Shown here in pieces: positions 10,990 to 26,294 of a stretch of DNA of 32,000 nucleotides. A program made the translations under genes and the position numbers. This stretch comes from an uncultured archaeon (lineage in GTDB: Archaea > Asgardarchaeota > Lokiarchaeia > Sigyniarchaeales > Promethearchaeaceae): assembly GCA_964426185.1 (NCBI GenBank), contig CAYRPF010000028.1, forward strand, positions 3,194-35,193. The letters are read 5' to 3'. Positions within the stretch are counted from its first letter, which is position 1; every line of letters begins with the position of its first letter. Below the pieces are notes generated by a model, which was not told the origin of the DNA, made no database searches, and saw only the letters and a list, made by a program, of their open reading frames with translations.

Positions 10990-11865
10990 TTAAAAGTTAG
11001 TAATAAGCACTTCCGGAATGGCTCCGCGTTTTTTACCATTGCTGTTAATTGCTCTTTTTGCAGAAAGAGTGTGAATATTGTATTCAGAAAACAAATCTAA
11101 AATGAAATCACAGTAGGAATTTGATAGCATTATATTGCATCCAAGTTCGTTCAATTGTTTGATAATTTCCTTTAAACGAATTTGATCTTCCTTACGGAAC
11201 AACTCTTTGGTGTATCCGGTAAAATTTGAAGTTTTAGATAGAGGCATGTACGGGGGATCGAAATAAATAAGACTTTCTTGAGTAGCATAATCCAACACAG
11301 ATTCAAAGGAAGCTTCAATAATTTTAATGCCTTGCAGGGCTTCATGAACGGTTCGCAGGTTCTTTTCATCGCAAATTACTGGATTTTTGTATTTACCGAA
11401 GGGAACATTGAAGTATCCTTTGGAATTAACACGATAAAGACCGTTAAAACAGGTGCGGTTAAGGAAAATCGTGCGAGATGCCTTTTCCATTGGGCTTAAA
11501 TTAGCAAACGAAGAAAATCTGTCCAGCTCTCTGATTTGATAAAAGTATTCCTTTTCATTTTTGTGCTGTTTGAGATGTTCGATAAGTTCATCCACAGATT
11601 TCTGGATAACCTTATATACATTTATCAAAACTGGATTATTGTCAATTAGAACCGCATTTTCTGGAAGTAAATAGAAGAAAAGAGCGCCACCCCCCACAAA
11701 TGGCTCAATGTAGTGCTTAATTTTGGAAGGAATAAATGGATCTAATTGTTTTAAAAGCTGCCGTTTACCTCCTGCCCATTTCAGAAAAGGGTGCGGTTCT
11801 GAAACTATTTTAAGATTTTTTCTATTTTGTGCCCGCAATTTAGAGCGATCTAAGGTATCCGACAT
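10990..11865 (-). CDS. dam: Dam-family (D12 class) DNA adenine methylase
   Basis: PFLKWAGGKRQL, EPFVGGGA, FNGLYRVN and YFDPPY motifs. Confidence 0.92.
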   Translation of the reverse strand: MSDTLDRSKLRAQNRKNLKIVSEPHPFLKWAGGKRQLLKQLDPFIPSKIKHYIEPFVGGGALFFYLLPENAVLIDNNPVLINVYKVIQKSVDELIEHLKQHKNEKEYFYQIRELDRFSSFANLSPMEKASRTIFLNRTCFNGLYRVNSKGYFNVPFGKYKNPVICDEKNLRTVHEALQGIKIIEASFESVLDYATQESLIYFDPPYMPLSKTSNFTGYTKELFRKEDQIRLKEIIKQLNELGCNIMLSNSYCDFILDLFSEYNIHTLSAKRAINSNGKKRGAIPEVLITNF

Positions 11866-12051: not shown

Positions 12052-12094
12052 TAATGGTTGAATAAATTATAAAAATAAAATTTAGGTGAGCAAC

Positions 12095-12448
12095 ATGACC
12101 GATGGTAAAAAAAATCAAACGAAAACCGAAGAAAATCCTAAAACTGATGAACACCGACTAAAATATCGAATTACACCAAAGTATGGTGTCTATACAGAAG
12201 ATGACAAAGTAATTTTACAAGTCGCAATCCCTGGTGTTAAAAAAGAAAACATTCAAATGAAGGCATTAAAAGATTATTTCACCTTGCGGGCTCAACGTGA
12301 TGAAGACACGGTTTACATGTTAGATTTGGACTTTGGGGTGAAGATCGAGCCAGAAAAAACTTCTTCGAGTTATGAAGAAGGACTATTACGCTTAGAATTT
12401 AAACGATTCAATCCCTTGGAGCACGCTTATACCGTTCCAATTCAATAA
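12095..12448 (+). CDS. Small heat shock protein (Hsp20/alpha-crystallin) 1
   Basis: IPGVKKENI, SYEEGLLRL and a C-terminal VPI motif; AGGTGA SD before ATG 12095. Confidence 0.88.
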   Translation: MTDGKKNQTKTEENPKTDEHRLKYRITPKYGVYTEDDKVILQVAIPGVKKENIQMKALKDYFTLRAQRDEDTVYMLDLDFGVKIEPEKTSSSYEEGLLRLEFKRFNPLEHAYTVPIQ

Positions 12449-12504
12449 TACATTTTTTTCTTTAACTAAAACGATAAATTTGAAAAAACAAAAAGGTGAT
12501 GAAT

Positions 12505-12864
12505 ATGGCACTCGTAGAAAATGAAAAATCCAAAGCAATGCAAGAATCAAAAACCAAAGAAGAACAAGATGAAGTCTATTATCGGGTTTTCCCCGACATG
12601 CGACGCCGAATCAACTACGAAGATAAGAAAATTTTCATCGAAGTTTCCCTCCCAGGAGTTAAAAAAGAAAACATTACTCTGAAAGTATTACCCACCTGGT
12701 TCCATTTAATTGGTCGACGCGGCCACATGGAATACAGTGCCAACCAAGCTTTTGGTGCTGAAGTGGTGCCTGAAAAAACTAAGGCAAAATATGACAACGG
12801 TTTGCTGGAAATAACCGCCTACATCCGTGATCCAATGGATGATGCTAAGGAAATTTCATTATAA
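12505..12864 (+). CDS. Small heat shock protein (Hsp20) 2
   Basis: LPGVKKENI and AKYDNGLLEI motifs; AGGTGA SD before ATG 12505. Confidence 0.9.
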   Translation: MALVENEKSKAMQESKTKEEQDEVYYRVFPDMRRRINYEDKKIFIEVSLPGVKKENITLKVLPTWFHLIGRRGHMEYSANQAFGAEVVPEKTKAKYDNGLLEITAYIRDPMDDAKEISL

Positions 12865-12956
12865 TTCAGAAAATATTCAATTTTTTAATTCTCTGTAAAT
12901 CTCTTTACAATAAATTATTAATATCAACCGTAAAAAAACCAAGAAGGTGATAGATT

Positions 12957-13328
12957 ATGTCAACAGTGGAAAAAGAAAAAGAAATGGTGGAAAAAAAGGA
13001 AGAAGTAGCTGAATCCAAAAAATCTGAGGAAGAAATCAAATATCGCATTCGTCCAACCCGATACTTGAATTATGATTGCATTGAAAACAAATGGGAAATG
13101 GAGTTTCATTTACCTGGTGTTCCAAAGGAGAATGTGAAATTTAAGATCTTAAACGATGCCTATTCTCTCGAAGCTAAGCGGGATCAAGCACTGTATCACT
13201 CTAGTGAGTATTTACCCTTTGAAATAGACACAGACAGCGTTAAAGCGGAGTACAACAATGGACTTCTATATGTGTCAGGAAAAATCAAAGATCCCATGGC
13301 TGATGCGGTAGAAATTAAATTGAACTAA
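12957..13328 (+). CDS. Small heat shock protein (Hsp20) 3
   Basis: LPGVPKENV, AEYNNGLLYV and a C-terminal IKL motif; AGGTGA SD. Confidence 0.9.
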   Translation: MSTVEKEKEMVEKKEEVAESKKSEEEIKYRIRPTRYLNYDCIENKWEMEFHLPGVPKENVKFKILNDAYSLEAKRDQALYHSSEYLPFEIDTDSVKAEYNNGLLYVSGKIKDPMADAVEIKLN

Positions 13329-13432: not shown

Positions 13433-14503
13433 ATGGGATCAGAAGATTCTAAATTACCTAAAATTCTTTTAATCGGAACCGGTGGGACCATTACTGCCCA
13501 AAAAATCGACCAAGCGTGGTCTCCCGGTAAATTCACCGAAGAAGATTTGCTCCAATTCATCCCGGAAATTCGCAAATTAGCCGAAATCGATACAACTAAC
13601 CTGTTCAACATAGATTCAGTCTGCATGCAGCCAAAGTATTGGGTAAAAATTGCCGAAACCATTCGAAAGGAGTATGATAATTATCAAGGTTTTGTGATCA
13701 CACACGGAACCGATACTTTACATTACACTGCTTCATCACTTTCCTTTTTGATGCAAAATTTGACTAAACCTGTTGTTTTAACCGGATCCATGGTGCCACC
13801 TCACGTTCTAGGGACTGATGCTTGGCGGAATTTAACTGATGCAATTAGGGTGGCGGTAGAAACGAAAATTCATGAGGTTTTGATCGTTTTCAATCGAAAA
13901 ATTCTCCGTGGCAATCGTACCAAGAAATTTCGGGAGGTGGAATTCGATGCCTATCAATCCATCGGGATGCAACCCATTGGAATAGTCGAACAAGACATTC
14001 GCTATTCGGGAGTCCCCTATTTTTCTCGAGATCAAAATGAAAAGCCAATATTTTACGATAAGATGGAATTGGAAGTCTGTATTCAAAAAATTACTCCTGG
14101 ATATAATCCCGAAATCATTGCTAAGTTGAGAGAAATTGGATATAAAGGTATAGTTACGGAAGGTTTTGGGTCGGGAAATATTCCAATTTATGAAAATTCG
14201 TTGATAAAAGAAATAGAGCAATCTACGCGGGCCAAAATACCTGTAATTGTATGTTCGCAATGTGCTATTGGATTTTCTTGGATGGATTTGTATGAATCGG
14301 GGAAAATGGCATTGATAGCGGGAGCAATTCCTGGATACGATATGATCGCTGAAACAGCTATGACTAAATTAATGTGGATTTTGGGTAACTTTCCTAATTT
14401 GACCATGGAAGAAATTCGTGCCAAGGTTTTGGAAGATGTTTCAGGTGAGATTTCATCAATAAAAACTCCTAAAGAAAAACGCGCTTGGGAATATGCATTT
14501 TAA
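13433..14503 (+). CDS. ansA: L-asparaginase, cytoplasmic type I
   Basis: IGTGGTIT, ITHGTDT, RGNRTKK, GFGSGN and CSQC motifs; lacks the GatD N-terminal domain. Confidence 0.92.
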   Translation: MGSEDSKLPKILLIGTGGTITAQKIDQAWSPGKFTEEDLLQFIPEIRKLAEIDTTNLFNIDSVCMQPKYWVKIAETIRKEYDNYQGFVITHGTDTLHYTASSLSFLMQNLTKPVVLTGSMVPPHVLGTDAWRNLTDAIRVAVETKIHEVLIVFNRKILRGNRTKKFREVEFDAYQSIGMQPIGIVEQDIRYSGVPYFSRDQNEKPIFYDKMELEVCIQKITPGYNPEIIAKLREIGYKGIVTEGFGSGNIPIYENSLIKEIEQSTRAKIPVIVCSQCAIGFSWMDLYESGKMALIAGAIPGYDMIAETAMTKLMWILGNFPNLTMEEIRAKVLEDVSGEISSIKTPKEKRAWEYAF

Positions 14504-14578
14504 CTAAAAAAGAAAAAGGTAAAAATTGTTACTTAAAAGAAAGATAGATAAAAAATATAGGATATTTTTATGTAAATA

Positions 14579-16030
14579 TCAACGATAAGCATCAAAACGG
14601 GGATTTGGCTCTAATTTTTTCATCATTTCTTTCAATCCCGGCTCTACCCCTTGTAATAACATATACCCCTTGTTAGGTTCTCTATTGGTGATTTCTCCCC
14701 TCAAGTTGGTGGTCATAATCTTTCTTACTTCTTCATAATTGCGTGTTTGCCCAAGTGTCCAAATCATTTTGGCATAAGCTGCGGAAGGCAACATGTTTGC
14801 ACCCTCAATCACCCCACGCGCCAACATATCACGCCCTGTTTCATAAACTCGTAGATTTGTAAAACCAAAAAGGGGTTCAACCACAATTGCCACTGGTATT
14901 TCTTCTTCTTGGGCTCGCTCTAATGCCTTAAAAAGATATGAACTAACATGTCCAAGTCCTGTTCCAATTATAACCATTCCATGATACTGCTTATCAATCA
15001 CTGAGTGAATCAAATCTTCATCCATTCCAGGATAGAAATAAAGCATTGCCACTCGTTCATCGATTTTATCGTTCAACCATGTATCTTCAATATTTCCCCG
15101 CCGCTTTACATCATCCTTCAGCCAAGTGATATTCTGATTGGCATCAATATAACCTAAAGGCATATCACTTAAAGTTCTAAATGCATCACGACGACTAGAG
15201 TGCATTTTTCTAACCCGAGTGCCTCGATGAATGAGGTTGTAGGAGTCGCTGGTGTTTCCGTGCATGGATACAACTACTTCTGCCAAGTCTGCATGGCCAG
15301 CAATGGTACTTGCATCAATAATATTTAATGGGCCATCGCTGGAAGGACGATCGCTGCTTCGCTGTGAACCTACGCAAACGATGGGACGGGCAAGATCTTG
15401 AAACATGAAAGAAAGAGCAGAGGCAGTATATGCCATTGTATCAGTTCCATGACCGATAATCACACCATCTGCCCCATTTTCAAACTCTTTCATTATTTCC
15501 CTTGCAGTTTTAACCCAATATTCGGGTTTGAAATTTTCACTTAAAATTCCATAGATTTTTTTTGGTGTGAGGTTACAAATATTCATTAATTCGGGAACAG
15601 CAGAAAATAGTTCCTCGGGGGTAAATGCAGGTAATACGGCACCGGTACGGTAGTCTAAACGACTTGCCACCGTTCCACCCGTTCCTAAAAGCGTGACATT
15701 AGGTAGTCCCGGTTTAAACTGGACGTTGACTTTGGGTAATTTATATGTCCCTTTCCGATAACCCAATTCTTCAATGTGACAATCATCGGTGATTCTCACA
15801 CCCACATTATATCCCGTATCTACTTTAATTACCAAGTAATCTTCAGAAGTATGTTCACTTCGCGGTAAAATGACACCTTCATATTCAGCTTTACCTCGAG
15901 TAACTTTTACCACACTCCAAACACCTACTCCTTCTTTAAGTAAGCGTTCTCGGAGTTTTCCCCTATAGCCGGTTGGTTCTTTCTGTAATGATTTTGATGA
16001 ATCAGATGTTTTAGTATTCGGTTCGGTCAT
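14579..16030 (-). CDS. gatD: Glu-tRNA(Gln) amidotransferase subunit D, copy 1
   Basis: GatD N-terminal domain (EGVILPR...GYNVGV), GTGGTVASRLDY, HGTDT, GSQRSSDRPSSD and RKMHSSRRDAF. Confidence 0.95.
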   Translation of the reverse strand: MTEPNTKTSDSSKSLQKEPTGYRGKLRERLLKEGVGVWSVVKVTRGKAEYEGVILPRSEHTSEDYLVIKVDTGYNVGVRITDDCHIEELGYRKGTYKLPKVNVQFKPGLPNVTLLGTGGTVASRLDYRTGAVLPAFTPEELFSAVPELMNICNLTPKKIYGILSENFKPEYWVKTAREIMKEFENGADGVIIGHGTDTMAYTASALSFMFQDLARPIVCVGSQRSSDRPSSDGPLNIIDASTIAGHADLAEVVVSMHGNTSDSYNLIHRGTRVRKMHSSRRDAFRTLSDMPLGYIDANQNITWLKDDVKRRGNIEDTWLNDKIDERVAMLYFYPGMDEDLIHSVIDKQYHGMVIIGTGLGHVSSYLFKALERAQEEEIPVAIVVEPLFGFTNLRVYETGRDMLARGVIEGANMLPSAAYAKMIWTLGQTRNYEEVRKIMTTNLRGEITNREPNKGYMLLQGVEPGLKEMMKKLEPNPRFDAYR

Positions 16031-16033
16031 TTT

Positions 16034-18013
16034 TTATAACCCCCCTTGTAGCTTATTATTAACAAACTCTGCTACTTGATTTCCAGGAAGTGCATGATTA
16101 ATCTTTCTCATAATTATACCGATTAATTGATTCGATTTATAATTCAATATATCTTCTTTTGATAAATGCTTTAGAACTTCTTTTTTCTTCGATTTAGCTT
16201 CAAAATTTTTGTAAACTTCTAAAGCATATAGGTATTCTTGTTCCAACTGTTCCTCAGACAAATCTTTTGTGCCGAATGCTTCTAATAATTGATCTAAAGT
16301 TAGTTCTGGATGATTCAAGGTAGAAATGACTAAATTGGGCAATATTGACCAATCAAAGTTCTTATCTTGTGCGCCCTTTAATAACTCGATAATTTTCTCA
16401 TCAGAAAGCTTATCGATTTTTATACCATCCCGTTTTAAGCCCAATAAACTATCTTCTAAGAAGTAATATGCTCGTTTAATGGGAATTTTATGTTCATTAA
16501 CTAAGTTTTCAAAAAGAATAATATGATCATGTCGAATTAGCTGTGTCAATTGATCGAAAGTTATTCTTGATTTTCCACAATACATTTTTTCATATTCCCA
16601 CGGCCGTTTTCCTACTTTAACCACCAATTTTGAAATCGCTTCCATATCCATATCTAGGACAGGTGTATCAGTATCTGGATACAATCGCTCTTTTCCATGA
16701 ATTACTCGGAGAAATTCGGAATTTCCATTAGGCAAAGCACGGCGAGTTTCTTGAGGTACTCCATCAAAGGCTATTTTAATGCGTTCAATTACCTTTTTCA
16801 TGGCGTGAATTGCCCATTTTTGAGAACCTAAAGCCAAAACATAAGCATCTTCACCGGAACAACTCAAGGTTTTAGCGATTTCTTGACGACGATTTTGATC
16901 TATTAATGGTTTAAAGAAATTTCCTTGTGAATTAATGGGGGAATTAAACATATCTGAATGATAAAGATTCCAAATGGGAATACCACTGATAAGCGAAGCT
17001 TTCTCCAAAATATCTTGGCCAAAATCTTTTCCTGGCTGTTCTTCCTTTCCTAGTATTCCAGCTAATTTAGGTAGTCGAATTCCCATCACAATGGAATTTT
17101 CGGGAATATCTTGGAAATGATGGGTAATATCTATGTAAGTGTGCTCAAAATTATCCTTTTTTAAACCTCTTTGCTGAAGTTCTTGTGCAATTTCAATTAG
17201 GGTCTCTTGACGGCACACCTCATATCGGCAGAGCTTCTCAAAATTATCTAAATCTTGCACTCCTTTTAATTCAACTCGATCTCCTCCAGTAATACTGATA
17301 TTTACATCTTGGCGAACAGTTCCGATTCCTCTGCGCCCGATTCCGCTTAATCGTAAAACAAGACCAATAGTTTTAGCGGTTTTAATTAATTCTGCAGGAT
17401 TGGAAACATCTCGATGATCAGTAATTACTTCAACTAAAGGAATGCCTAGACGATCTAAGTTGTAATAAACTGTTCTGCCATTATTTTCCGTTTTAATTTT
17501 ACGTGCACTGTCTTCTTCCACTGTAAGATTGGTGATCTTTACTTTTTTGCCATCCACCTCTACCCAACCATCACGAGCAACAATAGTAGTCCGTTGAAAA
17601 CCGGTAGTGATGCTTCCATCAAGATACTGCTTTCGGGCAAAAATAATTTCATCCACCATAGCTTGACAGTTCAACCAATGAGCGAGTTCATATCCTCTCA
17701 TCAAAGCCTCTACATCCGGATGCATGGGCGGCTGTTCATCTTGTTCATAAATACAATCGCATTTTTCAAAAGCATGATAGATCACCCGATACCCTTTCTC
17801 ATATTCAATGAGCATCCCAGGATCGAAGTCACCCATTTCACCCAACACTGGTCGAAAGTATCGTTCAAAGCGATAATCTGGTTTTGTTGAATTTGGGATC
17901 ATAATTGGGGGGCAATGGCAGAAAAGTTTGCGTTTTGAGTTAATTTGATGATGGATTTCTAAACCAGCATGAAACCCAATTTTTTGAAAATCAATATTAT
18001 TTGGATCTAGCAT
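16034..18013 (-). CDS. gatE: Glu-tRNA(Gln) amidotransferase subunit E, copy 1 (more diverged)
   Basis: GLEIHHQI, KLFCHCP, DGSITTGFQRT, EEDSAR, LDRLGIPLVE, RQDVNISI, ELKGVQ, VPQETR and RLYPDTD. Confidence 0.93.
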   Translation of the reverse strand: MLDPNNIDFQKIGFHAGLEIHHQINSKRKLFCHCPPIMIPNSTKPDYRFERYFRPVLGEMGDFDPGMLIEYEKGYRVIYHAFEKCDCIYEQDEQPPMHPDVEALMRGYELAHWLNCQAMVDEIIFARKQYLDGSITTGFQRTTIVARDGWVEVDGKKVKITNLTVEEDSARKIKTENNGRTVYYNLDRLGIPLVEVITDHRDVSNPAELIKTAKTIGLVLRLSGIGRRGIGTVRQDVNISITGGDRVELKGVQDLDNFEKLCRYEVCRQETLIEIAQELQQRGLKKDNFEHTYIDITHHFQDIPENSIVMGIRLPKLAGILGKEEQPGKDFGQDILEKASLISGIPIWNLYHSDMFNSPINSQGNFFKPLIDQNRRQEIAKTLSCSGEDAYVLALGSQKWAIHAMKKVIERIKIAFDGVPQETRRALPNGNSEFLRVIHGKERLYPDTDTPVLDMDMEAISKLVVKVGKRPWEYEKMYCGKSRITFDQLTQLIRHDHIILFENLVNEHKIPIKRAYYFLEDSLLGLKRDGIKIDKLSDEKIIELLKGAQDKNFDWSILPNLVISTLNHPELTLDQLLEAFGTKDLSEEQLEQEYLYALEVYKNFEAKSKKKEVLKHLSKEDILNYKSNQLIGIIMRKINHALPGNQVAEFVNNKLQGGL

Positions 18014-18022
18014 TATTATTCA

Positions 18023-18085
18023 CAAAAACCACTAAACTGAATTATTTGAGTTAAGAACGGAACCTTTTTGAAGTCGTGGTTTTTG
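18023..18085. promoter_or_regulatory. 10-bp perfect inverted repeat in the gatE1 5' region
   Basis: CAAAAACCAC (18023-18032) and GTGGTTTTTG (18076-18085). Confidence 0.4.
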
Positions 18086-18112
18086 CAAGGAGCACGGGAA
18101 GAAAATGGGATG

Positions 18113-18523
18113 TTAACATAATTGAAATTCAGAAAATTTCGTGTTGATTAATACATCTATCTTCTTTTTAAGCAAGTCTACATCGAAATTTGAAACATTA
18201 AGGATACCTTTATTCTCTATATAAATCGTAGTGGCGATCTCCCTCAATCTTTTTAAATCACAATTATCCTTTAAATAGAAGACGAAATAGATGGCTTTTT
18301 TCTGAAAATATAAATTTTTGGCAATCACAACCATATAGGTTAGATCTACACCAGAACCGAATGAAATGGTGGCTATATCTTGATGAAAGAGTTTTTGTCC
18401 CAAACTTCCTATAGCCGAAACCATTCCGCTAAGAAGCACACCATTAATTTCGGGAAATCCTGCGAATGTGCGTGTAAAAAAAGGAAATCCTCGTGAATCA
18501 CAAATTTGTAGGCATAAAATCAT
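18113..18523 (-). CDS. Longin/roadblock-like small domain protein (Asgard eukaryotic-signature type)
   Basis: LQICDSRGFPFFTRTF, then LLSGMVSAIGSLGQKLF, then beta strands and a C-terminal helix; 136 aa. Confidence 0.65.
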   Translation of the reverse strand: MILCLQICDSRGFPFFTRTFAGFPEINGVLLSGMVSAIGSLGQKLFHQDIATISFGSGVDLTYMVVIAKNLYFQKKAIYFVFYLKDNCDLKRLREIATTIYIENKGILNVSNFDVDLLKKKIDVLINTKFSEFQLC

Positions 18524-18643
18524 AAAATCTCTAAGAGATTAAAGGAAACGCACCCAAATTAATTTAATCGATTTGGAAGCATTAAAAATGAAGCATTTAT
18601 TCGGAATATCAAATTATAAAAATTTTTGACACCTTTAGTTCAT

Positions 18644-20635
18644 ATGGGAAAATCGATAGACTATGCCGCAGTCGGGCTTAAATGTGGGATTGAAATCCAC
18701 CAACAATTGAATTCTGCCACTAAACTCTTTTGTGCTTGCCCAAATCAACTACAAGGCACCCGAGATCCAGATTTCAGAATTTTAAGAAAACAAAGACCAG
18801 TTTTAGGGGAAGAAGGGAAATTTGACGAAGGTATGCTGTCTGAATTTTTGAAAGGTGGTTCAGTCATTTACGAAGGATATTATGATTGCACCTGCACTTA
18901 CGAACTTGATGAAACTCCTCCGTTTGCATGCGATGAAGAATGCATTGATATTGCACTGGAGATTTGTGCGCTTTTTAAAATGGATATCGTCAGAGAAATG
19001 CATGTATGTCGAAAAAATTATGTAGATGGAAGTGTGCCGGCTGGGTTCCAGAGAACCATGGAAATCGGCCAAAATGGCAGATTAACCTTAAAAAACGGGG
19101 AAGAAATCGGAATTGAAAATATATTTTTAGAAGAAGATGCCGCCCGTCGAATAAAAACTGAAGGAAAAATCTCATATTTTCGAGTTGATCGATTAGGAAT
19201 TCCTTTGGTCGAAATAACTACTACTCCAGACATCCATGATCCAGAAGATGCACGAGAAACGGCCTATCGCATTGGTTTATTATTGCGTTCCACAAACAAA
19301 GTCAAAAATATAATTGGTTCCACTCGTCAAGATATAAATGTCTCGATTGCAGGAGGAAAACGTATAGAAATTAAGGGTGTCCAGAAATTAGATTGGATAC
19401 CGTTATTAATCCAGAATGAAGTTCTCCGACAGCAGAAACTGATTGAAATTAAGGACAAATTGAAGCAAAAATCATTCTCAGCCACAGATATCAAGAACAA
19501 ACCCGTGGATTTAACCAATGTTTTTCAAAAAACCAATTGCAAATTTGTTAAAGCAGGGATAAAACGAAAAGAAAAATTAATAGGTTTGAAAATTCCTGGT
19601 TTTAAAGGCATATTTGGAACGGAAGTCCTACCAAATCGTCGATTCGGAACAGAAGTTGCCGATAAAGTAAAAGTAATTACTGGTTTAAAGGGTCTTATTC
19701 ATTCAGACGAACCATTAATTGAGAAATATCAGTTTTCTGAAGAAGAAATAGAACAAGCTAATCAAAAATTGGAAATTAATGAGGGAGATCTATTTATCTT
19801 ATTACTCGCAAAAGGAAAAGCTTTAGAAACCGCCCTTAATGTGATTATTGAACGTTGTAAACAAGCATACATCGGTGTTCCTGAAGAGACTAGGCAAGCC
19901 CAAGAAGATGGTATTCATGTTTTTCTGAGGGAATTGGGAGGCGAAAAAAGGTTATATCCAGATACAGATACTCCTCCAATAATCCTTTCTGAAAATCGTA
20001 TCAATGCCTTTGAAGATAAGTTACCTCTTTATCCATGGGATGTCATTAAGATTTACTCTAAAAAATATCAGCTCGAAGAATTTCTCATTGAAGATTTAAT
20101 AATGACGGGTAAACTTCCGCTATTTGATGAGTTAATTACAAAGTATCCTGATAATCCCATGTTAATTGTCCGAGCCATAACCGATATGGTTAAAGTTTTA
20201 CATCGCGAAGAAAAAGATACTAATAATTTGCACCCCAATCATTATCATCAAATATTTAAGGGTTTAAAGGAGGAAATCATTGCAAAAGAAGCTATTCAGA
20301 AAATACTACGGGTCTGGTGTGATGAGCCTAATTTACCTTTAACTCGAGCGAAAGCTAAAGCGGGAGTTCAATCGGTAAATGAGTCAAAATTAGACGAAAT
20401 TATTACAGATCTCGTTAGGAAAAATCAAGATCTTATCAAATCACGAGGACGGGGAGCAGTGGGGCCATTAATGGGTGATTTAATGAAGATTGTGGGTAGA
20501 GGGTCGATAGATGGGAAAATTTTATCATCCAAATTAAGCCAAGCAATCAGTAAAATCCTCCCAAATTCTCAAACAACTCCAAAGAAGAAAAAGGAAAAAA
20601 AAAATACTACAAAATCAAAGAAGGTGAAAAACTAA
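18644..20635 (+). CDS. gatE: Glu-tRNA(Gln) amidotransferase subunit E, copy 2
   Basis: GIEIHQQL, KLFCACP, DGSVPAGFQRT, LEEDAAR, VDRLGIPLVE, RQDINVSI, EIKGVQ, VPEETR and a YqeY-like GPLMGDLM tail; ATG 18644. Confidence 0.95.
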   Translation: MGKSIDYAAVGLKCGIEIHQQLNSATKLFCACPNQLQGTRDPDFRILRKQRPVLGEEGKFDEGMLSEFLKGGSVIYEGYYDCTCTYELDETPPFACDEECIDIALEICALFKMDIVREMHVCRKNYVDGSVPAGFQRTMEIGQNGRLTLKNGEEIGIENIFLEEDAARRIKTEGKISYFRVDRLGIPLVEITTTPDIHDPEDARETAYRIGLLLRSTNKVKNIIGSTRQDINVSIAGGKRIEIKGVQKLDWIPLLIQNEVLRQQKLIEIKDKLKQKSFSATDIKNKPVDLTNVFQKTNCKFVKAGIKRKEKLIGLKIPGFKGIFGTEVLPNRRFGTEVADKVKVITGLKGLIHSDEPLIEKYQFSEEEIEQANQKLEINEGDLFILLLAKGKALETALNVIIERCKQAYIGVPEETRQAQEDGIHVFLRELGGEKRLYPDTDTPPIILSENRINAFEDKLPLYPWDVIKIYSKKYQLEEFLIEDLIMTGKLPLFDELITKYPDNPMLIVRAITDMVKVLHREEKDTNNLHPNHYHQIFKGLKEEIIAKEAIQKILRVWCDEPNLPLTRAKAKAGVQSVNESKLDEIITDLVRKNQDLIKSRGRGAVGPLMGDLMKIVGRGSIDGKILSSKLSQAISKILPNSQTTPKKKKEKKNTTKSKKVKN

Positions 20636-20636
20636 G

Positions 20637-22025
20637 ATGACTAGCCAAACTCAAGAATTTTACAGTGGTTATAAGCCTCAAACCATTAAAATTATGCAAA
20701 AATTTGATGTAAAGATTTGGGATCGAATTGAAATTACCACCTCCAAAGGAAAAGCCCAAGGTGTGGTTCTTCCCCGCAATAAATTTGCCCCCGATGGTTT
20801 TATTGAAATAAAACTCAAAAATGGATACAATATTGGTATTCCTGTGGATGAATCTTCTAATATCAAAGTATTGGGAACTGTGCCTCCGATGAAAGTATCA
20901 TTTGAACAAAAAACTCTTCCACACAACAAAAAACTTCCCACAGTAAAATTAATTGGGACGGGAGGGACAATCGCTTCCCGCTTGGATTATACTACAGGTG
21001 CGGTAATTCCCGCATTTGAACCAGGAGAATTATTTACTGCAGTGCCAGAATTAGCTGAGATCAGTAATATAGAGACTGAGGTGGTATTTCAACTTCTTTC
21101 GGAGAATTTATCCCCCCAGAACTGGCTTGAATTGGCAAAAAAAATTGTTTCTATAGCGAAATCGGAAATTGATGGAATCATAATTGCTCATGGAACCGAT
21201 ACTTTAAGTTTCACGGCCGCAGCTTTATCCTTTTTGTTAAAAAATGTTTCTATTCCAATTGTACTGGTTGGATCCCAGCGCTCAAGCGATCGACCTTCTT
21301 CAGATGCTGCCTTAAACTTGATTAATGCCGTAAAAGTTGCTAGTGAAGCCAATTTAGGAGAAGTCGTTGTCTGTATGTTGGGTTCATCAGCGCATGATTA
21401 CGGTTTTATTCACCGGGGTACCAGAGTTCGTAAGATGCATTCATCCGCGCGCCACACTTTTCGATCGATTGGAGCATCTCCTCTGGGGATGGTACGAAAT
21501 CAGATAATTACCTATTTTAGTCCTGATTATAATCCCAGAAATAAGAATAATCTCAGTAAAATGGATTTTTGGCCGAAAATTGAAGATAAAGTGGCTTTAA
21601 TTTATTCACATCCTGGTATGCAAAGCGATGTTTTAGATTTTTATATCAATAACGGATATAAGGGCATTGTTTTTGCTGGTTCAGGATTAGGACATTTACC
21701 AAAAACGATGTTTCCTGCTTTGAAGCGGGCGCAGCAAGCTGAAATTCCCGTTCTAATGACTGTCCAAACTATTTGGGGTTATACTGGAATGGATGTGTAT
21801 GAAAGTGGTCGAGAATTACTGGAATTGGGGGTAATTCCCGGAAAAAATATGTTACCTGAGGTGGCTTTTGCTAAAATGTGCTGGGCTTTGGGAAATTTCG
21901 AAGGATACAATAAGGTTAAAGAAATCTTAACCACCAACATTGCGGGAGAAATCACTCTGGGAGAACCGATGAATGGATTTATGGTGCTACAAGGGGTAGA
22001 AGATAAGATACTACCCTTAAAATAA
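20637..22025 (+). CDS. gatD: Glu-tRNA(Gln) amidotransferase subunit D, copy 2
   Basis: GTGGTIASRLDY, HGTDT, GSQRSSDRPSSD and RKMHSS motifs; starts 1 nt after the gatE2 stop, with an AAGGTGA SD inside gatE2. Confidence 0.95.
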   Translation: MTSQTQEFYSGYKPQTIKIMQKFDVKIWDRIEITTSKGKAQGVVLPRNKFAPDGFIEIKLKNGYNIGIPVDESSNIKVLGTVPPMKVSFEQKTLPHNKKLPTVKLIGTGGTIASRLDYTTGAVIPAFEPGELFTAVPELAEISNIETEVVFQLLSENLSPQNWLELAKKIVSIAKSEIDGIIIAHGTDTLSFTAAALSFLLKNVSIPIVLVGSQRSSDRPSSDAALNLINAVKVASEANLGEVVVCMLGSSAHDYGFIHRGTRVRKMHSSARHTFRSIGASPLGMVRNQIITYFSPDYNPRNKNNLSKMDFWPKIEDKVALIYSHPGMQSDVLDFYINNGYKGIVFAGSGLGHLPKTMFPALKRAQQAEIPVLMTVQTIWGYTGMDVYESGRELLELGVIPGKNMLPEVAFAKMCWALGNFEGYNKVKEILTTNIAGEITLGEPMNGFMVLQGVEDKILPLK

Positions 22026-22123
22026 CTTTTTTTTATTTATTTCACCCTATTACTTCATCCTCATTAGCAATTAGAATAAATCAGAAAAAAGAGTGAGAAG
22101 CAGGAAAAGTGGGAAAAAATGGA

Positions 22124-23422
22124 TTAAGGGGTATTTCGATTCATTACCCTGGGATATGCAATAGTATCTCGAATATGATCTAATTTTCCCACCCAGCGAA
22201 GTAGTCTTTCGATTCCTAAACCAAAACCTGAATGAGGTACGCTTCCGTACCGGCGTAAATCTAAATACCATTGATAATCTTCGATATCTGAGCCGTCTCG
22301 CTTAAGATTAAAGATAATATTGTCAATGTCATCCTCGCGCTGACTGGATCCAATAATTTCACCATAACCTTCAGGTGCTAATAAATCGTTGCATTCCGCG
22401 TATTTCCCATCCAAAGTTTTCATATAAAATGCTTTAATATCTCGAGGAAAATGAGTTATATGAATTGGGGCTGTAAGATCCTCGGTTAAGGCACGTTCGT
22501 GATGGGTTCCAAAATCTTCACCCCACTCGATAGGCACACCCTTATTTTGAATGCGTTCCACAGCTTCATCGTAGCGGATTCGGTCAAATGGTGGTTCGAT
22601 TTTTAATAATTCTTCAGGATCGCGGCCCAATTCCTTCAAATCTCGGGATACTTCCTTAGCTGCGTGATGAATCATGGAAGTAACCAATCCATCTTCCAAA
22701 TTAATTATTCCCTCCAAATCCACAAACGCAGCTTCAGCTTCCAAATGCCAGTATTCTGCCAGATGACGAGTAGTACGAGATTTTTCTGCTCGAAAACTGG
22801 GTGTCAAAGAGTAAACTTTTTGATGAGCAAAAATTAAGGATTCTAAATACAATTGAGCGGATTGAGAAAGATAAGCTGGTTTACCGAAATACTTAATTTC
22901 GAAAAGGGTGCTTCCTCCTTCACAAGAACTTCCTGTAATTATGGGAGGAAACATTTCCCAATAGCCTTGCTCTTTGAAATAAGCCCGAGCACCTTCCAAT
23001 AATGCAGCTTTAACCCGAAAACTACTGGTAAGTTTTTGACTCCGGACCCAAAGATGGCGATTGTCCAAGAGAAAGGCTTCACTTTGATCCTTTGAAATCG
23101 GAAATGGTTCTGCCTGATGAATGAGTTTGTATTCTGAAATTTTTAACTCATATCCGTTTGGTGCTCGTTCATCTGGTTGAATTTTGCCACCTACCCAAAG
23201 TGAAGATTCATACCGAATTCCACAGATATCTTCAAATTTTTCAAGTTTAAAATCTGAAGCTTTGGCAGTGCATTGTAAAATACCCGTTCCGTCTCGAATA
23301 ATTATGAATGCAATTTTCTTACTGTTCCGTTGGCGATATACCCAACCACGGACCCGGACTTCTTTTCCCGCAAATTCTGGTGATATCACTTCTTCAATAC
23401 GATAGAATTTTTTTTCTTCCAT
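22124..23422 (-). CDS. asnS: Asparagine--tRNA ligase
   Basis: OB-fold RGWV...RDGTG, AYLSQSAQLYLE, FRAEKSRTTRHLAE, GEIIGSSQRE and WYLDLRRYGSVPHSGFGLGIER. Confidence 0.95.
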   Translation of the reverse strand: MEEKKFYRIEEVISPEFAGKEVRVRGWVYRQRNSKKIAFIIIRDGTGILQCTAKASDFKLEKFEDICGIRYESSLWVGGKIQPDERAPNGYELKISEYKLIHQAEPFPISKDQSEAFLLDNRHLWVRSQKLTSSFRVKAALLEGARAYFKEQGYWEMFPPIITGSSCEGGSTLFEIKYFGKPAYLSQSAQLYLESLIFAHQKVYSLTPSFRAEKSRTTRHLAEYWHLEAEAAFVDLEGIINLEDGLVTSMIHHAAKEVSRDLKELGRDPEELLKIEPPFDRIRYDEAVERIQNKGVPIEWGEDFGTHHERALTEDLTAPIHITHFPRDIKAFYMKTLDGKYAECNDLLAPEGYGEIIGSSQREDDIDNIIFNLKRDGSDIEDYQWYLDLRRYGSVPHSGFGLGIERLLRWVGKLDHIRDTIAYPRVMNRNTP

Positions 23423-24095: not shown

Positions 24096-25364
24096 TTATT
24101 TATTACTAATTGTATCTTTTGATTCTTCTTCATGTTCTTTTTCATGTTTTTTCTCATTTTTCTCCTTCTTTTTGTCATCTGTATATTTTTTGAAGAGTTT
24201 TTCTTTTATACCTAAAATTGCAGCTAATTGTTCTTTAGATTTCTTCTCTTCCCGACTTTTTTCTCTTTCTTTTGCTTCAATGCGGGCTAATTTCTTCCGT
24301 TCTTTTTCAATTTTCTTTTCTAACGCAAGTTTTGCAGCTTCCAATGCTTTCAAAGATTGAATCTGTTTTAATTCAGCTTTGTATTCGTTTTTATCTGCTT
24401 TCCATTCTAAGCGTTCAAGCCGTTCTCTTGCTTTTTCCCGTTTTTGTTGAGCTTTTTCCAGTAATTTCTGGGCTCGGCGATCTTTGTATTCCGTCTTTTT
24501 CAATTGATAATAGGCAATTGGTGTTTTCCGACCTTTTAGTTCTTCATGTTCTGCAATTATTTCTTCCACTTCTTTGATTGGTTTTATTTTGGCGCGTTCT
24601 TCTGCAGTAAGGTCATCCTTTTCTCTAAATTCGCTGGGTCGATATTTCATAGCTGGGGTTCCCATATACACCCAATTGGGTTCCAACTCTTGATGGAAAG
24701 AAGTGCTGGAAAGGGCACCTAGAATGGTGTTATCTCCTATAATTGTTCCTGGACTGACCACAGAGTGGGCTCCAATCAAGCAATTTTTTCCAATCTTTAC
24801 TTTCTTTATGATGAGAAGTTCAGTGGTAATTAAGGAAGTCATGATTACAGAACCTTGCCCGATAATTGTTCCAGGTCCGACTTCTAAGAATTCTGAATCC
24901 ACCCATGCATCATATGTGGGTGTAGAGAATGATACTCGGTTTCCAAAGACCTTAAGAGCAAGTGAATCTGCCCAAGGAACGGGAAAATTATGGCAAATCC
25001 ACAGAGTAAATTTTTTAATTACTGCGCGAAGACTCCAAAATCGATAATCGCGGTTTTTAGAAGATCTTTCAAAATATCCCTCACGTGGACGATGGAATAG
25101 GTTAATTATTTTAAGAAAAAGCCAAGACCACCATATTGCTCCAAAAATCAATAGAAAATAGCCCAGAAAGAAAAGAAGGGGGAATATTCCCAAAAACCAA
25201 GCAAGTGAAATTTCGAAAGATGAAAGGATCTTAAAAATAATATATGTTTCGGGAAACAAAGTTAACCAAATCAATAAAACATATAGTAAAATATCCCATT
25301 TTACCAATAAAGTATTTGTGGTAGTCGGTCCTGCTTTTAAACTGGTCGGTAGTTGATTTGACAT
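24096..25364 (-). CDS. Membrane-anchored left-handed beta-helix (hexapeptide repeat) acyltransferase-like protein with a long E/K/R-rich tail
   Basis: Two N-terminal TM segments; LEVGPGTIIGQGS, VKIGKNCLIGAHS, IIGDNTILG and YMGTPA; about 170-aa charged helical tail. Confidence 0.8.
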   Translation of the reverse strand: MSNQLPTSLKAGPTTTNTLLVKWDILLYVLLIWLTLFPETYIIFKILSSFEISLAWFLGIFPLLFFLGYFLLIFGAIWWSWLFLKIINLFHRPREGYFERSSKNRDYRFWSLRAVIKKFTLWICHNFPVPWADSLALKVFGNRVSFSTPTYDAWVDSEFLEVGPGTIIGQGSVIMTSLITTELLIIKKVKIGKNCLIGAHSVVSPGTIIGDNTILGALSSTSFHQELEPNWVYMGTPAMKYRPSEFREKDDLTAEERAKIKPIKEVEEIIAEHEELKGRKTPIAYYQLKKTEYKDRRAQKLLEKAQQKREKARERLERLEWKADKNEYKAELKQIQSLKALEAAKLALEKKIEKERKKLARIEAKEREKSREEKKSKEQLAAILGIKEKLFKKYTDDKKKEKNEKKHEKEHEEESKDTISNK

Positions 25365-25415
25365 TTTGAATTACTCCCTCTTTATTGTTGTATATTTTTT
25401 ATTCTTGCATATTTT

Positions 25416-26294
25416 TTACTTTTGCGTATTTTTCGCTTCTTTATATCGCTTTTTTCGCTGTTTATTTTGAAGCACCAGCGGTTCAAGCTCATCTGGAATT
25501 TCAAGCATCCTTATATAACGTTTAAGCGAAATCTTTCCGACGGGTAAACCGAAATATTTGCCAAATCCCTTAACTCTCCGAAATTTCACCACTCCCGACA
25601 TTGGTAAAAATTCTGTATAGGGGTCCAATTCAGTTCCAGGAGGAATTGCATTAAAAGCACCCACAACGGCATGATCTCCAATTTTCACTTTTTTTAAAGT
25701 TATGGCACCGTATTTTCCTTCCACAAGATGGCTGCTTACTATTGCACCCTGCCCAATATATGCGTTTTCTCCCATCTCCAAAAATTCTTGGGTATAAAAC
25801 TGATCTTCTAACACAGAATTTTTTCCAATTTTGTTCGCACCTACAAATGCAAAAGCCCAAGGAACCAACCAGGGATATATTGATTTAGAAACTTCCCATT
25901 TTAAGATACGTAAAATTAATCCACGCAAGTGATAATAATTTAGCGCCCGAACTTCAGCTCTATTTACACCAGCAGCTGCCACCAATTCCGTTTGAGGCGA
26001 CCGCCAATTACAAAATCGTATCACCCAACGGCTGAACAGGATTAAAATCATTAATCTAATAAAAAAGAAGAGTATAATAATTATGGGGGTAAAAATCCAT
26101 ATCGCAATTAATCTAAGGTCTATAATAACTAACGAAAATTGAAGCAAACTTGGCAAATTTGGATATACTGAAAATTTTACATAATAATACAAACCAATTG
26201 ATGGAAAAAACCAAGAATATCCCCAAATAAATAAGATAATTGGAACATACCGTTCATATTGAATTCTAACCTTAGGGACAGCGGAAGAGATCAT
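25416..26294 (-). CDS. Membrane-anchored left-handed beta-helix acyltransferase-like protein, paralog of its neighbour
   Basis: Two TM segments; LEMGENAYIGQGAIVSSHLVEG, VKIGDHAVVG and YFGLP. Confidence 0.8.
   Translation of the reverse strand: MISSAVPKVRIQYERYVPIILFIWGYSWFFPSIGLYYYVKFSVYPNLPSLLQFSLVIIDLRLIAIWIFTPIIIILFFFIRLMILILFSRWVIRFCNWRSPQTELVAAAGVNRAEVRALNYYHLRGLILRILKWEVSKSIYPWLVPWAFAFVGANKIGKNSVLEDQFYTQEFLEMGENAYIGQGAIVSSHLVEGKYGAITLKKVKIGDHAVVGAFNAIPPGTELDPYTEFLPMSGVVKFRRVKGFGKYFGLPVGKISLKRYIRMLEIPDELEPLVLQNKQRKKRYKEAKNTQK

Follow-up and report, generated by a model that had tools for sequence, protein, structure and literature searches.

A second, divergent GatDE amidotransferase encoded beside the canonical enzyme in a Lokiarchaeal genome

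Introduction

GatDE, the archaeal tRNA-dependent amidotransferase, is presented in textbooks as specific to archaea, present in single copy and devoted to one task, the formation of Gln-tRNA(Gln). The genome of an uncultured archaeon of the Lokiarchaeia (family Promethearchaeaceae) carries two gatE-gatD pairs in one locus, arranged head to head, with ansA, coding for an L-asparaginase, and asnS, coding for asparaginyl-tRNA synthetase (AsnRS), on either side. What is the second pair for? The locus lies in a stretch of 32,000 nucleotides (contig CAYRPF010000028.1, positions 3,194 to 35,193), which is called the window throughout, and all coordinates given below are window positions. The source contig (C28) is part of a 3.26-Mb assembly, 92% complete. 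An initial annotation, made from the letters of the window, had assigned to the second enzyme another role than the first, and had viewed the locus as an Asn-centred amide-nitrogen module. Both proposals have been examined by comparing the locus with other Asgard genomes. Sampled genomes are denoted by G, genera by g and families by f, each followed by a number; f1 is the family of this genome.

Results

Two complete gatE-gatD pairs in one locus

Genes were sorted by NCBIfam equivalog cut-offs and by the Pfam domains of each open reading frame (ORF). The minus-strand pair is made by gatE1 (16034-18013, 659 aa), coding for the E subunit of a divergent GatDE, hereafter the E1 type, and gatD1 (14579-16030, 483 aa), coding for its asparaginase-like glutaminase D subunit. 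The plus-strand pair is canonical, and is made by gatE2 (18626-20635, 669 aa from a TTG start; an alternative ATG start is found at 18644) and gatD2 (20637-22025, 462 aa). The two genes are separated by 3 nt in the first pair, by 1 nt in the second. GatE2 scored 654 bits with NF003107 (cut-off 456), GatD2 494 bits with NF003217 (cut-off 310) and 493 bits with TIGR02153 (cut-off 324), GatD1 518 bits with the latter model. GatE1 passes the NF003107 cut-off by a small margin (481 vs 456 bits), and scored 413 bits with TIGR00134 (cut-off 319.55).

GatD1 features the Pfam domains GatD_N, Asparaginase and Asparaginase_C; GatE2 features GatB_N, GAD and GatB_Yqey. GatE1 had no Pfam match to GAD, the insertion resembling aspartyl-tRNA synthetase (AspRS), and its YqeY tail scored 20 bits, below cut-off. 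Cradle, AspRS-like insertion, helical domain and YqeY-like tail are all present in the AlphaFold model of GatE1 (pLDDT 89), whose best matches in the PDB are the GatE chains 1zq1_C (TMt 0.81) and 2d6f (0.78). The ORFs lie exactly where the initial annotation had placed two intact, tightly coupled pairs bracketed by asparaginase and AsnRS, and the catalytic motifs which it had reported are seen in the translations of both copies (TGGT, HGTDT and RKMH in GatD; EIH, GFQRT, EED, RQD and ExKGVQ in GatE). By equivalog scores, architecture, and conservation of the kinase/amidase residues of GatE and of the Thr-Thr-Asp-Lys site of GatD, GatDE1 is a GatDE enzyme. By homology, GatE1 should bind GatD1; two separate GatDE holoenzymes, both predicted to be functional, are encoded in the locus.

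GatDE1 is an old Asgard lineage

Trees of GatE and GatD were built by IQ-TREE, and the second pair forms a distinct clade with 100% support in both. The E1 clade has a stem of 0.82, lies inside the Asgard GatE radiation, and is sister (96%) to a group of canonical enzymes of f29, f16 and the order of this genome. The internal topology of the D1 clade mirrors that of E1. In contrast, gatE2 groups with the single-copy GatEs of its own order (99%), and gatD2 falls within the canonical clade of the order (100%); standing apart from that clade, GatDE1 is not an ortholog of canonical GatDE. Single-copy GatE and GatD, analyzed in 40 relatives, are all of the E2/D2 type, the GatEs being 46–61% identical to E2 and 33–38% to E1, so GatDE2 is the vertically inherited, housekeeping enzyme. 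Identity between the co-resident copies is 35% for GatE and 45% for GatD. With the separate clades, these values agree with the earlier view that the copies are strongly diverged, and reflect neither a recent duplication nor an assembly artefact.

Orthologs of E1 (58–77% identity) were found in 9 of the 154 genomes of the order, all belonging to f1, and always within ~25 kb of the canonical pair. That one GatDE is the rule in archaea, as had been assumed, holds for the relatives, since the second type is absent from the other 145 genomes. When 1.8 billion representative proteins were searched, a clear gap divided an E1 group, 45–57% identical to the query, from everything else (≤38%). The E1 type has been identified in ~55 of 400 Asgard genomes, belonging to f1, f12, f13 (26/31), f16 (8/22) and f18 (10/12). 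Contigs carrying it outside f1, those of f18 included, are labelled "Candidatus Heimdallarchaeota" in NCBI titles. Without exception, the gene downstream of an E1-type gatE is a gatD of the D1 type. GatDE1 is thus an old, Asgard-wide sister lineage of GatDE rather than a local duplicate.

Sequences of f18 nest among the f1 genera in the E1 tree (99%) as in the D1 tree (100%), while the canonical enzymes of the two families are far apart in both. This suggests that the E1-D1 pair moved as a unit between the f1 and f18 lineages, and GatDE1 has probably been exchanged laterally between f1 and Heimdall-group lineages.

The survey of gatE and gatD genes provided additional observations. What looked like a GatE-GatD fusion in f3 turned out to be two in-frame genes parted by a single stop. 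Canonical GatEs of f21 score 660 bits, yet the coding regions contain in-frame TAG and TAA stops (G272:C76:9844-11760, G275:C18:14612-16528, G270:C1:1470525-1472444), for which an intervening element, recoding or splitting of the gene could account. Complete gatE-gatD operons, in conflict with the archaea-specific GatDE of textbooks, were found also in bona fide bacterial assemblies, namely in a Bacteroidales chromosome (OY820914.1), a 2.5-Mb Acidobacteriota contig, Myxococcales, Planctomycetia, and an isolate of Clostridiales oral taxon 876 (L249, L230, L225, L260, L284). Bacterial GatEs are 30–34% identical to E1 and 32–38% to E2; bacterial GatDs are 50–59% identical to D1. In the literature searched, no description was found of a second or paralogous Asgard GatDE, of glutaminyl-tRNA synthetase (GlnRS) in Asgard archaea or Heimdallarchaeota, or of bacterial GatDE.

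Selection on the second pair and its domains

Nonsynonymous divergence (dN) was measured in comparisons of this genome with its congeners, in which synonymous sites have reached saturation (pS 0.70–0.77), so ratios to synonymous divergence (dS) serve as bounds only. Values of dN in the locus range from 0.06 to 0.26. GatD1 has the lowest (0.057 vs G001), below that of AsnRS. All four Gat genes are under purifying selection, and the ORFs of the E1-type pair are intact in all the ~55 genomes. Intact ORFs, dN values low relative to saturated dS, and clades with 100% support uphold the view of an old second pair, complete and kept by selection.

At eighty positions of the alignment, all the catalytic motifs among them, E1 and canonical sets share one conserved residue, and a conservative Ile/Leu swap is the only fixed difference between the sets. 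Residues which are conserved only in the canonical GatEs map to insertion domain and tail. Domain conservation was measured in the same eight genomes for both types. Identity is higher in E1 than in E2 in the N part (0.71 vs 0.66) and the C part (0.71 vs 0.63) of the cradle, lower in the helical domain (0.33 vs 0.45) and the tail (0.16 vs 0.37). The E1 tail is wholly lost in genus g3. A conserved catalytic core accompanied by low identity in helical domain and tail suggests that constraint on the grip of the tRNA elbow has been loosened.

GatDE types and tRNA-Gln

GlnRS was not found in this 92%-complete genome, in which one GluRS-like (glutamyl-tRNA synthetase) hit only was obtained; GatB was not found apart from the two GatEs, hence there is no GatCAB. 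In the lack of both, a GatDE route is obligatory to form Gln-tRNA(Gln). GatDE2, canonical by equivalog scores, architecture and orthology, is the only available one. AsnB was not found in the genome either, but archaeal AsnA, a paralog of the AsnRS core, is present (346 bits, cut-off 309), along with single copies of AsnRS and of an AspRS of the archaeal type. Among the tRNAs recovered are tRNA-Gln(CUG), which has A1-U72 and A73, and tRNA-Asn(GUU), which has G1-C72 and G73; the tRNA set of this metagenome-assembled genome (MAG) is incomplete (29 Infernal hits).

Combinations of GatDE type, GlnRS and tRNA-Gln vary among families. All 13 genomes of f13 which were checked carry the E1 type only; 12 have GlnRS, 12 AsnRS. 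Genomes of the family retain CUG and UUG tRNA-Gln with the classical A1-U72 and A73. Both GatDE types coexist in f18, f12 and part of f1, and GlnRS accompanies them in f18, but not in f12 and f1. Of eight checked species of genus g49 of f16, most of which have GlnRS, seven carry the E1 or the canonical type, never the two together; in the eighth, G212, no GatE was found. In all g49 species a pair of tRNA-Gln genes with G73 is found beside the GlnRS gene. Canonical-only species have in addition old-type A73 tRNA-Gln genes, CUG and UUG in G224, G225 and G228; only the UUG copy was found in G220. Five E1-type species, two of which are confirmed as E1-only, have each exactly one old-type, intron-bearing tRNA with a Gln body, A1-U72 and A73 (G211, G214, G215, G216, G217; loci L177, L187, L179, L188, L148). 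This tRNA is orthologous to the CUG gene found in canonical-only congeners; its loop, UUCUAU, with anticodon CUA, is conserved, while introns diverge between species. Each GatDE type is therefore retained together with tRNAs of the tRNA-Gln type, which favours amidation of Glu to Gln on such acceptors. Genome-wide reassignment of TAG, which the CUA anticodon brought into consideration, was rejected, as TAG ends 23–41% of long ORFs, and the open stretches downstream are short.

The GlnRS genes of the Heimdall-group families f13, f16 and f18 are bona fide, with scores of 630–723 bits against a cut-off of 426 (e.g., G168:C1:1132418-1134016, G220:C1:2444400-2445989, G211:C76:3366-4937); reviews hold that archaea lack GlnRS. 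The pair of G73 tRNA-Gln genes lies directly next to GlnRS in f16. The only tRNA-Gln genes found in f13 have A73, and are ~13.5 kb away from GlnRS. In the anticodon loop of several tRNA-Gln genes of Lokiarchaea, C33 appears to replace the near-universal U33, the loops being CCCUGAC and CCUUGAC (L125, L126, L130, L131, L132; G010, G011, G001). The UUG tRNA-Gln of G001 has a 13–14-nt intron in the D-arm.

The locus and asparagine

The ansA gene (13433-14503, plus strand) is convergent with gatD1, and encodes a stand-alone type I L-asparaginase (TIGR00519, 293.9 bits, cut-off 260.5). With the gatD model the product scores below cut-off (244.7 vs 324); it has Asparaginase and Asparaginase_C domains only, without GatD_N, and is distant from both GatD clades in the GatD tree (branch length 1.95). 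The asnS gene (22124-23422, minus strand; NF003037, 475 bits, cut-off 414) is convergent with gatD2. Synteny does not extend far. AnsA is syntenic in G001 only, asnS is adjacent in G001 and G002 only, so that ansA and asnS, as the small ORF136 described below, are neighbours shared within this genus only. Comparison across families showed no conserved neighbour of the E1-D1 pair. That AsnRS was transferred together with the pair was considered and dismissed, because the AsnRS tree does not match the E1 and D1 trees: AsnRS has two origins in f1, the sequences of g1, g5 and g6 forming a clade of their own, that of g3 grouping tightly with family f3 (L134-L146 and window 22124-23422). In f3, asnS resides 2–3 kb from gatB. 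Adjacency restricted to one genus, a discordant AsnRS tree and the presence of AsnA do not sustain the notion of an Asn-centred amide-nitrogen module.

The same genome does not call for an amidotransferase acting on Asp-tRNA(Asn), since AsnA and AsnRS are both present, and tRNA-dependent synthesis of Asn is not needed. Amidation of Asp-tRNA(Asn), which had been listed first among the possible roles of the second enzyme, loses that place also because E1 types are co-retained with tRNA-Gln-type, not tRNA-Asn, acceptors. AspRS residues were compared at positions 26 and 85 (numbered on 1b8a and 1wyd). The change K85P is said to relax AspRS specificity. Pro85 was found in GatCAB lineages, in g1, g5, g6, f13 and f18, and also in f15, from which GatCAB and the E1 type are both absent; Lys85 occurs alongside E1 in G004 and G211. 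AspRS of this genome has Pro85, as does the f15 control.

Other features of the window

ORF136 (18113-18523, minus strand, 136 aa), upstream of gatE1 on the same strand, may have a roadblock/longin fold. It has no match in Pfam or NCBIfam. Its conservation is limited to this genus, with orthologs in G001 and G002 (69% and 55% identity by BLAST, 68% and 54% by alignment). The label of longin given to it earlier is weakly supported: Foldseek matches are all roadblock/longin proteins, but weak (E 4e-3 or weaker, TM ≤0.41), and the model, in which elements follow the order beta-beta-alpha-beta-beta-beta-alpha-alpha, is of low confidence (pLDDT 57). ORF136 and gatE2 diverge from a 102-bp AT-rich intergenic region (18524-18625), read from the sequence as a putative promoter. 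The TATA-like sequence 'ATTATAAAAA' is found ~25 nt upstream of the gatE2 ATG at 18644.

Three tandem paralogous HSP20/alpha-crystallin genes (120–123 aa; 12086-13328, plus strand) precede the locus, and the triplet is kept in the congener G001. The flanks include a gene for a D12-class N6-adenine DNA methyltransferase and two adjacent genes for hexapeptide-repeat (left-handed beta-helix) transferases (10990-11865 and 24096-26294, minus strand). Synteny of the latter with gatD2 extends to genera g5 and g6.

Discussion

Role of GatDE1

GatDE2 is the housekeeping Glu-tRNA(Gln) amidotransferase, and provides the obligatory route to Gln-tRNA(Gln). The explanation which we place ahead of the others, with about even confidence, is that GatDE1 also converts Glu to Gln on acceptors of the tRNA-Gln type, as a specialised or auxiliary enzyme which does not form Asn. 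Its E and D subunits would co-evolve and move as a unit; the GatD1 glutaminase would release ammonia, and GatE1 activate by ATP and amidate the tRNA-bound carboxylate. Helical and tail domains, which contact the tRNA elbow, have been relaxed or rebuilt. The targets would be tRNAs with an A1-U72, A73 acceptor, on which GatDE1 would act beside GatDE2, possibly sharing the labour with it. That the second GatDE has another role, as first supposed, is probably correct in that it is not a simple repeat of the housekeeping enzyme: it forms a separate clade, has relaxed elbow domains, and is kept beside the canonical pair in four f1 genera. The Asn role attached to that idea is not supported.

Several observations weigh against Glu-to-Gln amidation by GatDE1 as the whole story. 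GatB is absent in every E1-bearing genome searched (~55), and several of these genomes, including the single-contig G168 and G169, G211, and G004/G009, lack AsnA and AsnB above cut-off. A tail weakly conserved or lost suggests changed tRNA recognition. In the genomes examined, G210 and G191 aside, the E1 type is always beside canonical GatDE or GlnRS, and never the sole route to Gln-tRNA; accordingly, GatDE1 has nowhere been found to suffice without GlnRS. Its retention along with the canonical pair in four f1 genera, f18 and f12 speaks against simple redundancy. TAG being an ordinary stop, the CUA tRNA of E1-type g49 species is not a normal decoder. No third, odd tRNA-Gln-like gene was found in f1 by aragorn, BLAST or Infernal, which detected only ordinary CUG and UUG genes, the tRNA set of this MAG being incomplete.

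The first two of these points fit an amidotransferase for Asp-tRNA(Asn), which would have taken over tRNA-dependent Asn synthesis from GatCAB. Distribution in f1 is complementary (nine genomes have E1 without GatB, four GatB without E1), and GatCAB-bearing relatives have no AsnA, so that GatCAB probably makes Asn there. The tRNA-binding domains appear rebuilt, and Pro85, the residue of non-discriminating-like AspRS, occurs in g1, g5, g6, f13 and f18. We nevertheless regard this alternative as unlikely. The mutual exclusion of GatB and E1 is mostly phylogenetic, as Heimdall-group genomes lack GatB whether or not they carry E1 (f15, E1-less species of f16), and the f1 switch from GatB to E1 goes along with acquisition of AsnRS and, for most genera, of AsnA as well. 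Pro85 is uninformative, since f15 has it with neither enzyme, and G004 and G211 have E1 with Lys85. G220, which lacks AsnA, AsnB and GatB, has canonical GatDE only. This genome has its own AsnA and AsnRS, and its tRNA-Asn has G1-C72 and G73, unlike the A1-U72 pair read by GatDE; the either/or pattern and the co-retained Gln-body tRNA of g49 point to tRNA-Gln.

The intron-bearing Gln-body tRNA(CUA) of the five E1-type g49 species, in which TAG is still a stop, raises the possibility that the E1 type serves a dedicated non-decoding tRNA, or a carboxylate which is not on a tRNA at all. To this may be added that f13 keeps E1 despite GlnRS and AsnRS, that g3 has no tail and other lineages conserve it poorly, and that bacteria with full gatE-gatD operons presumably need none for decoding. 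In its specific form, the proposal is of a second tRNA-dependent system, outside housekeeping, in which the E1-type GatDE would amidate a dedicated Gln-body tRNA (anticodon CUA in g49), a tentative suggestion to which we give a low probability; such a system would suppress UAG by Gln, rarely or conditionally, or deliver Gln-tRNA to a process outside the ribosome. The broader reading is doubtful as well, because in f1 only the CUG and UUG genes were found, the tRNA set of this MAG being incomplete, f13 tRNA-Gln anticodons are normal, and conserved partner genes, which might hint at a new pathway, are lacking. The CUA gene could moreover be an old tRNA decaying after takeover by GlnRS, as the A1.G72 mismatch in G210 may indicate. 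That GatDE1 is merely redundant or decaying, with no function of its own, is very improbable. Its chemistry is the same as that of GatDE2, and reciprocal loss in g49 would be compatible with redundancy, but the ORFs are intact throughout, dN is far below saturated dS and lowest of the locus in GatD1, GatE1 exceeds GatE2 in conservation of the catalytic cradle, and the pair is kept across four genera and several families.

Comparison with known systems

Canonical GatE reads the D-loop of the tRNA by its tail, and GatDE recognises the A1-U72 pair. GatDE1 resembles the canonical enzymes of M. thermautotrophicus (2D6F, with tRNA-Gln) and P. abyssi (1ZQ1) in having two subunits encoded by a gatE-gatD operon, GatD_N joined to an asparaginase fold, a four-part GatE (model TMt 0.78–0.81), and all the catalytic residues. 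It differs by forming a separate clade on a long stem, its subunits being 35% (GatE) and 45% (GatD) identical to those of the co-resident pair, by the loss of signature residues in insertion and tail, the latter being absent in g3, by never being the sole route to Gln-tRNA(Gln), and by a patchy distribution suggestive of lateral transfer. GatCAB of Thermus thermophilus and Deinococcus radiodurans (transamidosome 3KFU) provides a parallel, being a tRNA-dependent amidotransferase kept although aminoacyl-tRNA synthetases cover decoding; it serves the synthesis of Asn on tRNA in these organisms, which have AsnRS too. In the genomes searched, GatCAB and the E1 type are mutually exclusive. GatCAB belongs however to another enzyme family (GatB, GatA and GatC, not GatE and GatD). 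The GatDE1 genome has AsnA, and for GatDE1 comparative tRNA evidence points to tRNA-Gln-type acceptors, unlike the Asn system of GatCAB.

GluRS1 and GluRS2 of Helicobacter pylori and Acidithiobacillus are duplicated, tRNA-specialised components of the indirect Gln pathway. As GatDE1 and GatDE2, they are paralogous enzymes of one pathway which coexist; the synthetase is duplicated there, the amidotransferase here. By analogy, GatDE1 and GatDE2 might split the tRNA-Gln isoacceptors.

Implications

A second GatDE lineage is maintained in ~55 of the 400 Asgard genomes sampled, beside the canonical enzyme or an acquired GlnRS; it seems to move between classes, and its tRNA-recognition end has been loosened. 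Knowing the substrate of GatDE1 would show how indirect and direct aminoacylation coexist or replace one another in the closest archaeal relatives of eukaryotes, and could reveal a new use of tRNA-dependent amidation. Should a dedicated tRNA be served, the task of GatDE1 in this genome would be distinct from decoding CAA and CAG, and the bacterial gatE-gatD operons would belong to the same unrecognised biology. The two enzymes of the window, of which orthologs are found in the cultured congeners Ca. Prometheoarchaeum and Ca. Lokiarchaeum, are a ready pair for side-by-side biochemistry, in a lineage which has cultured relatives.

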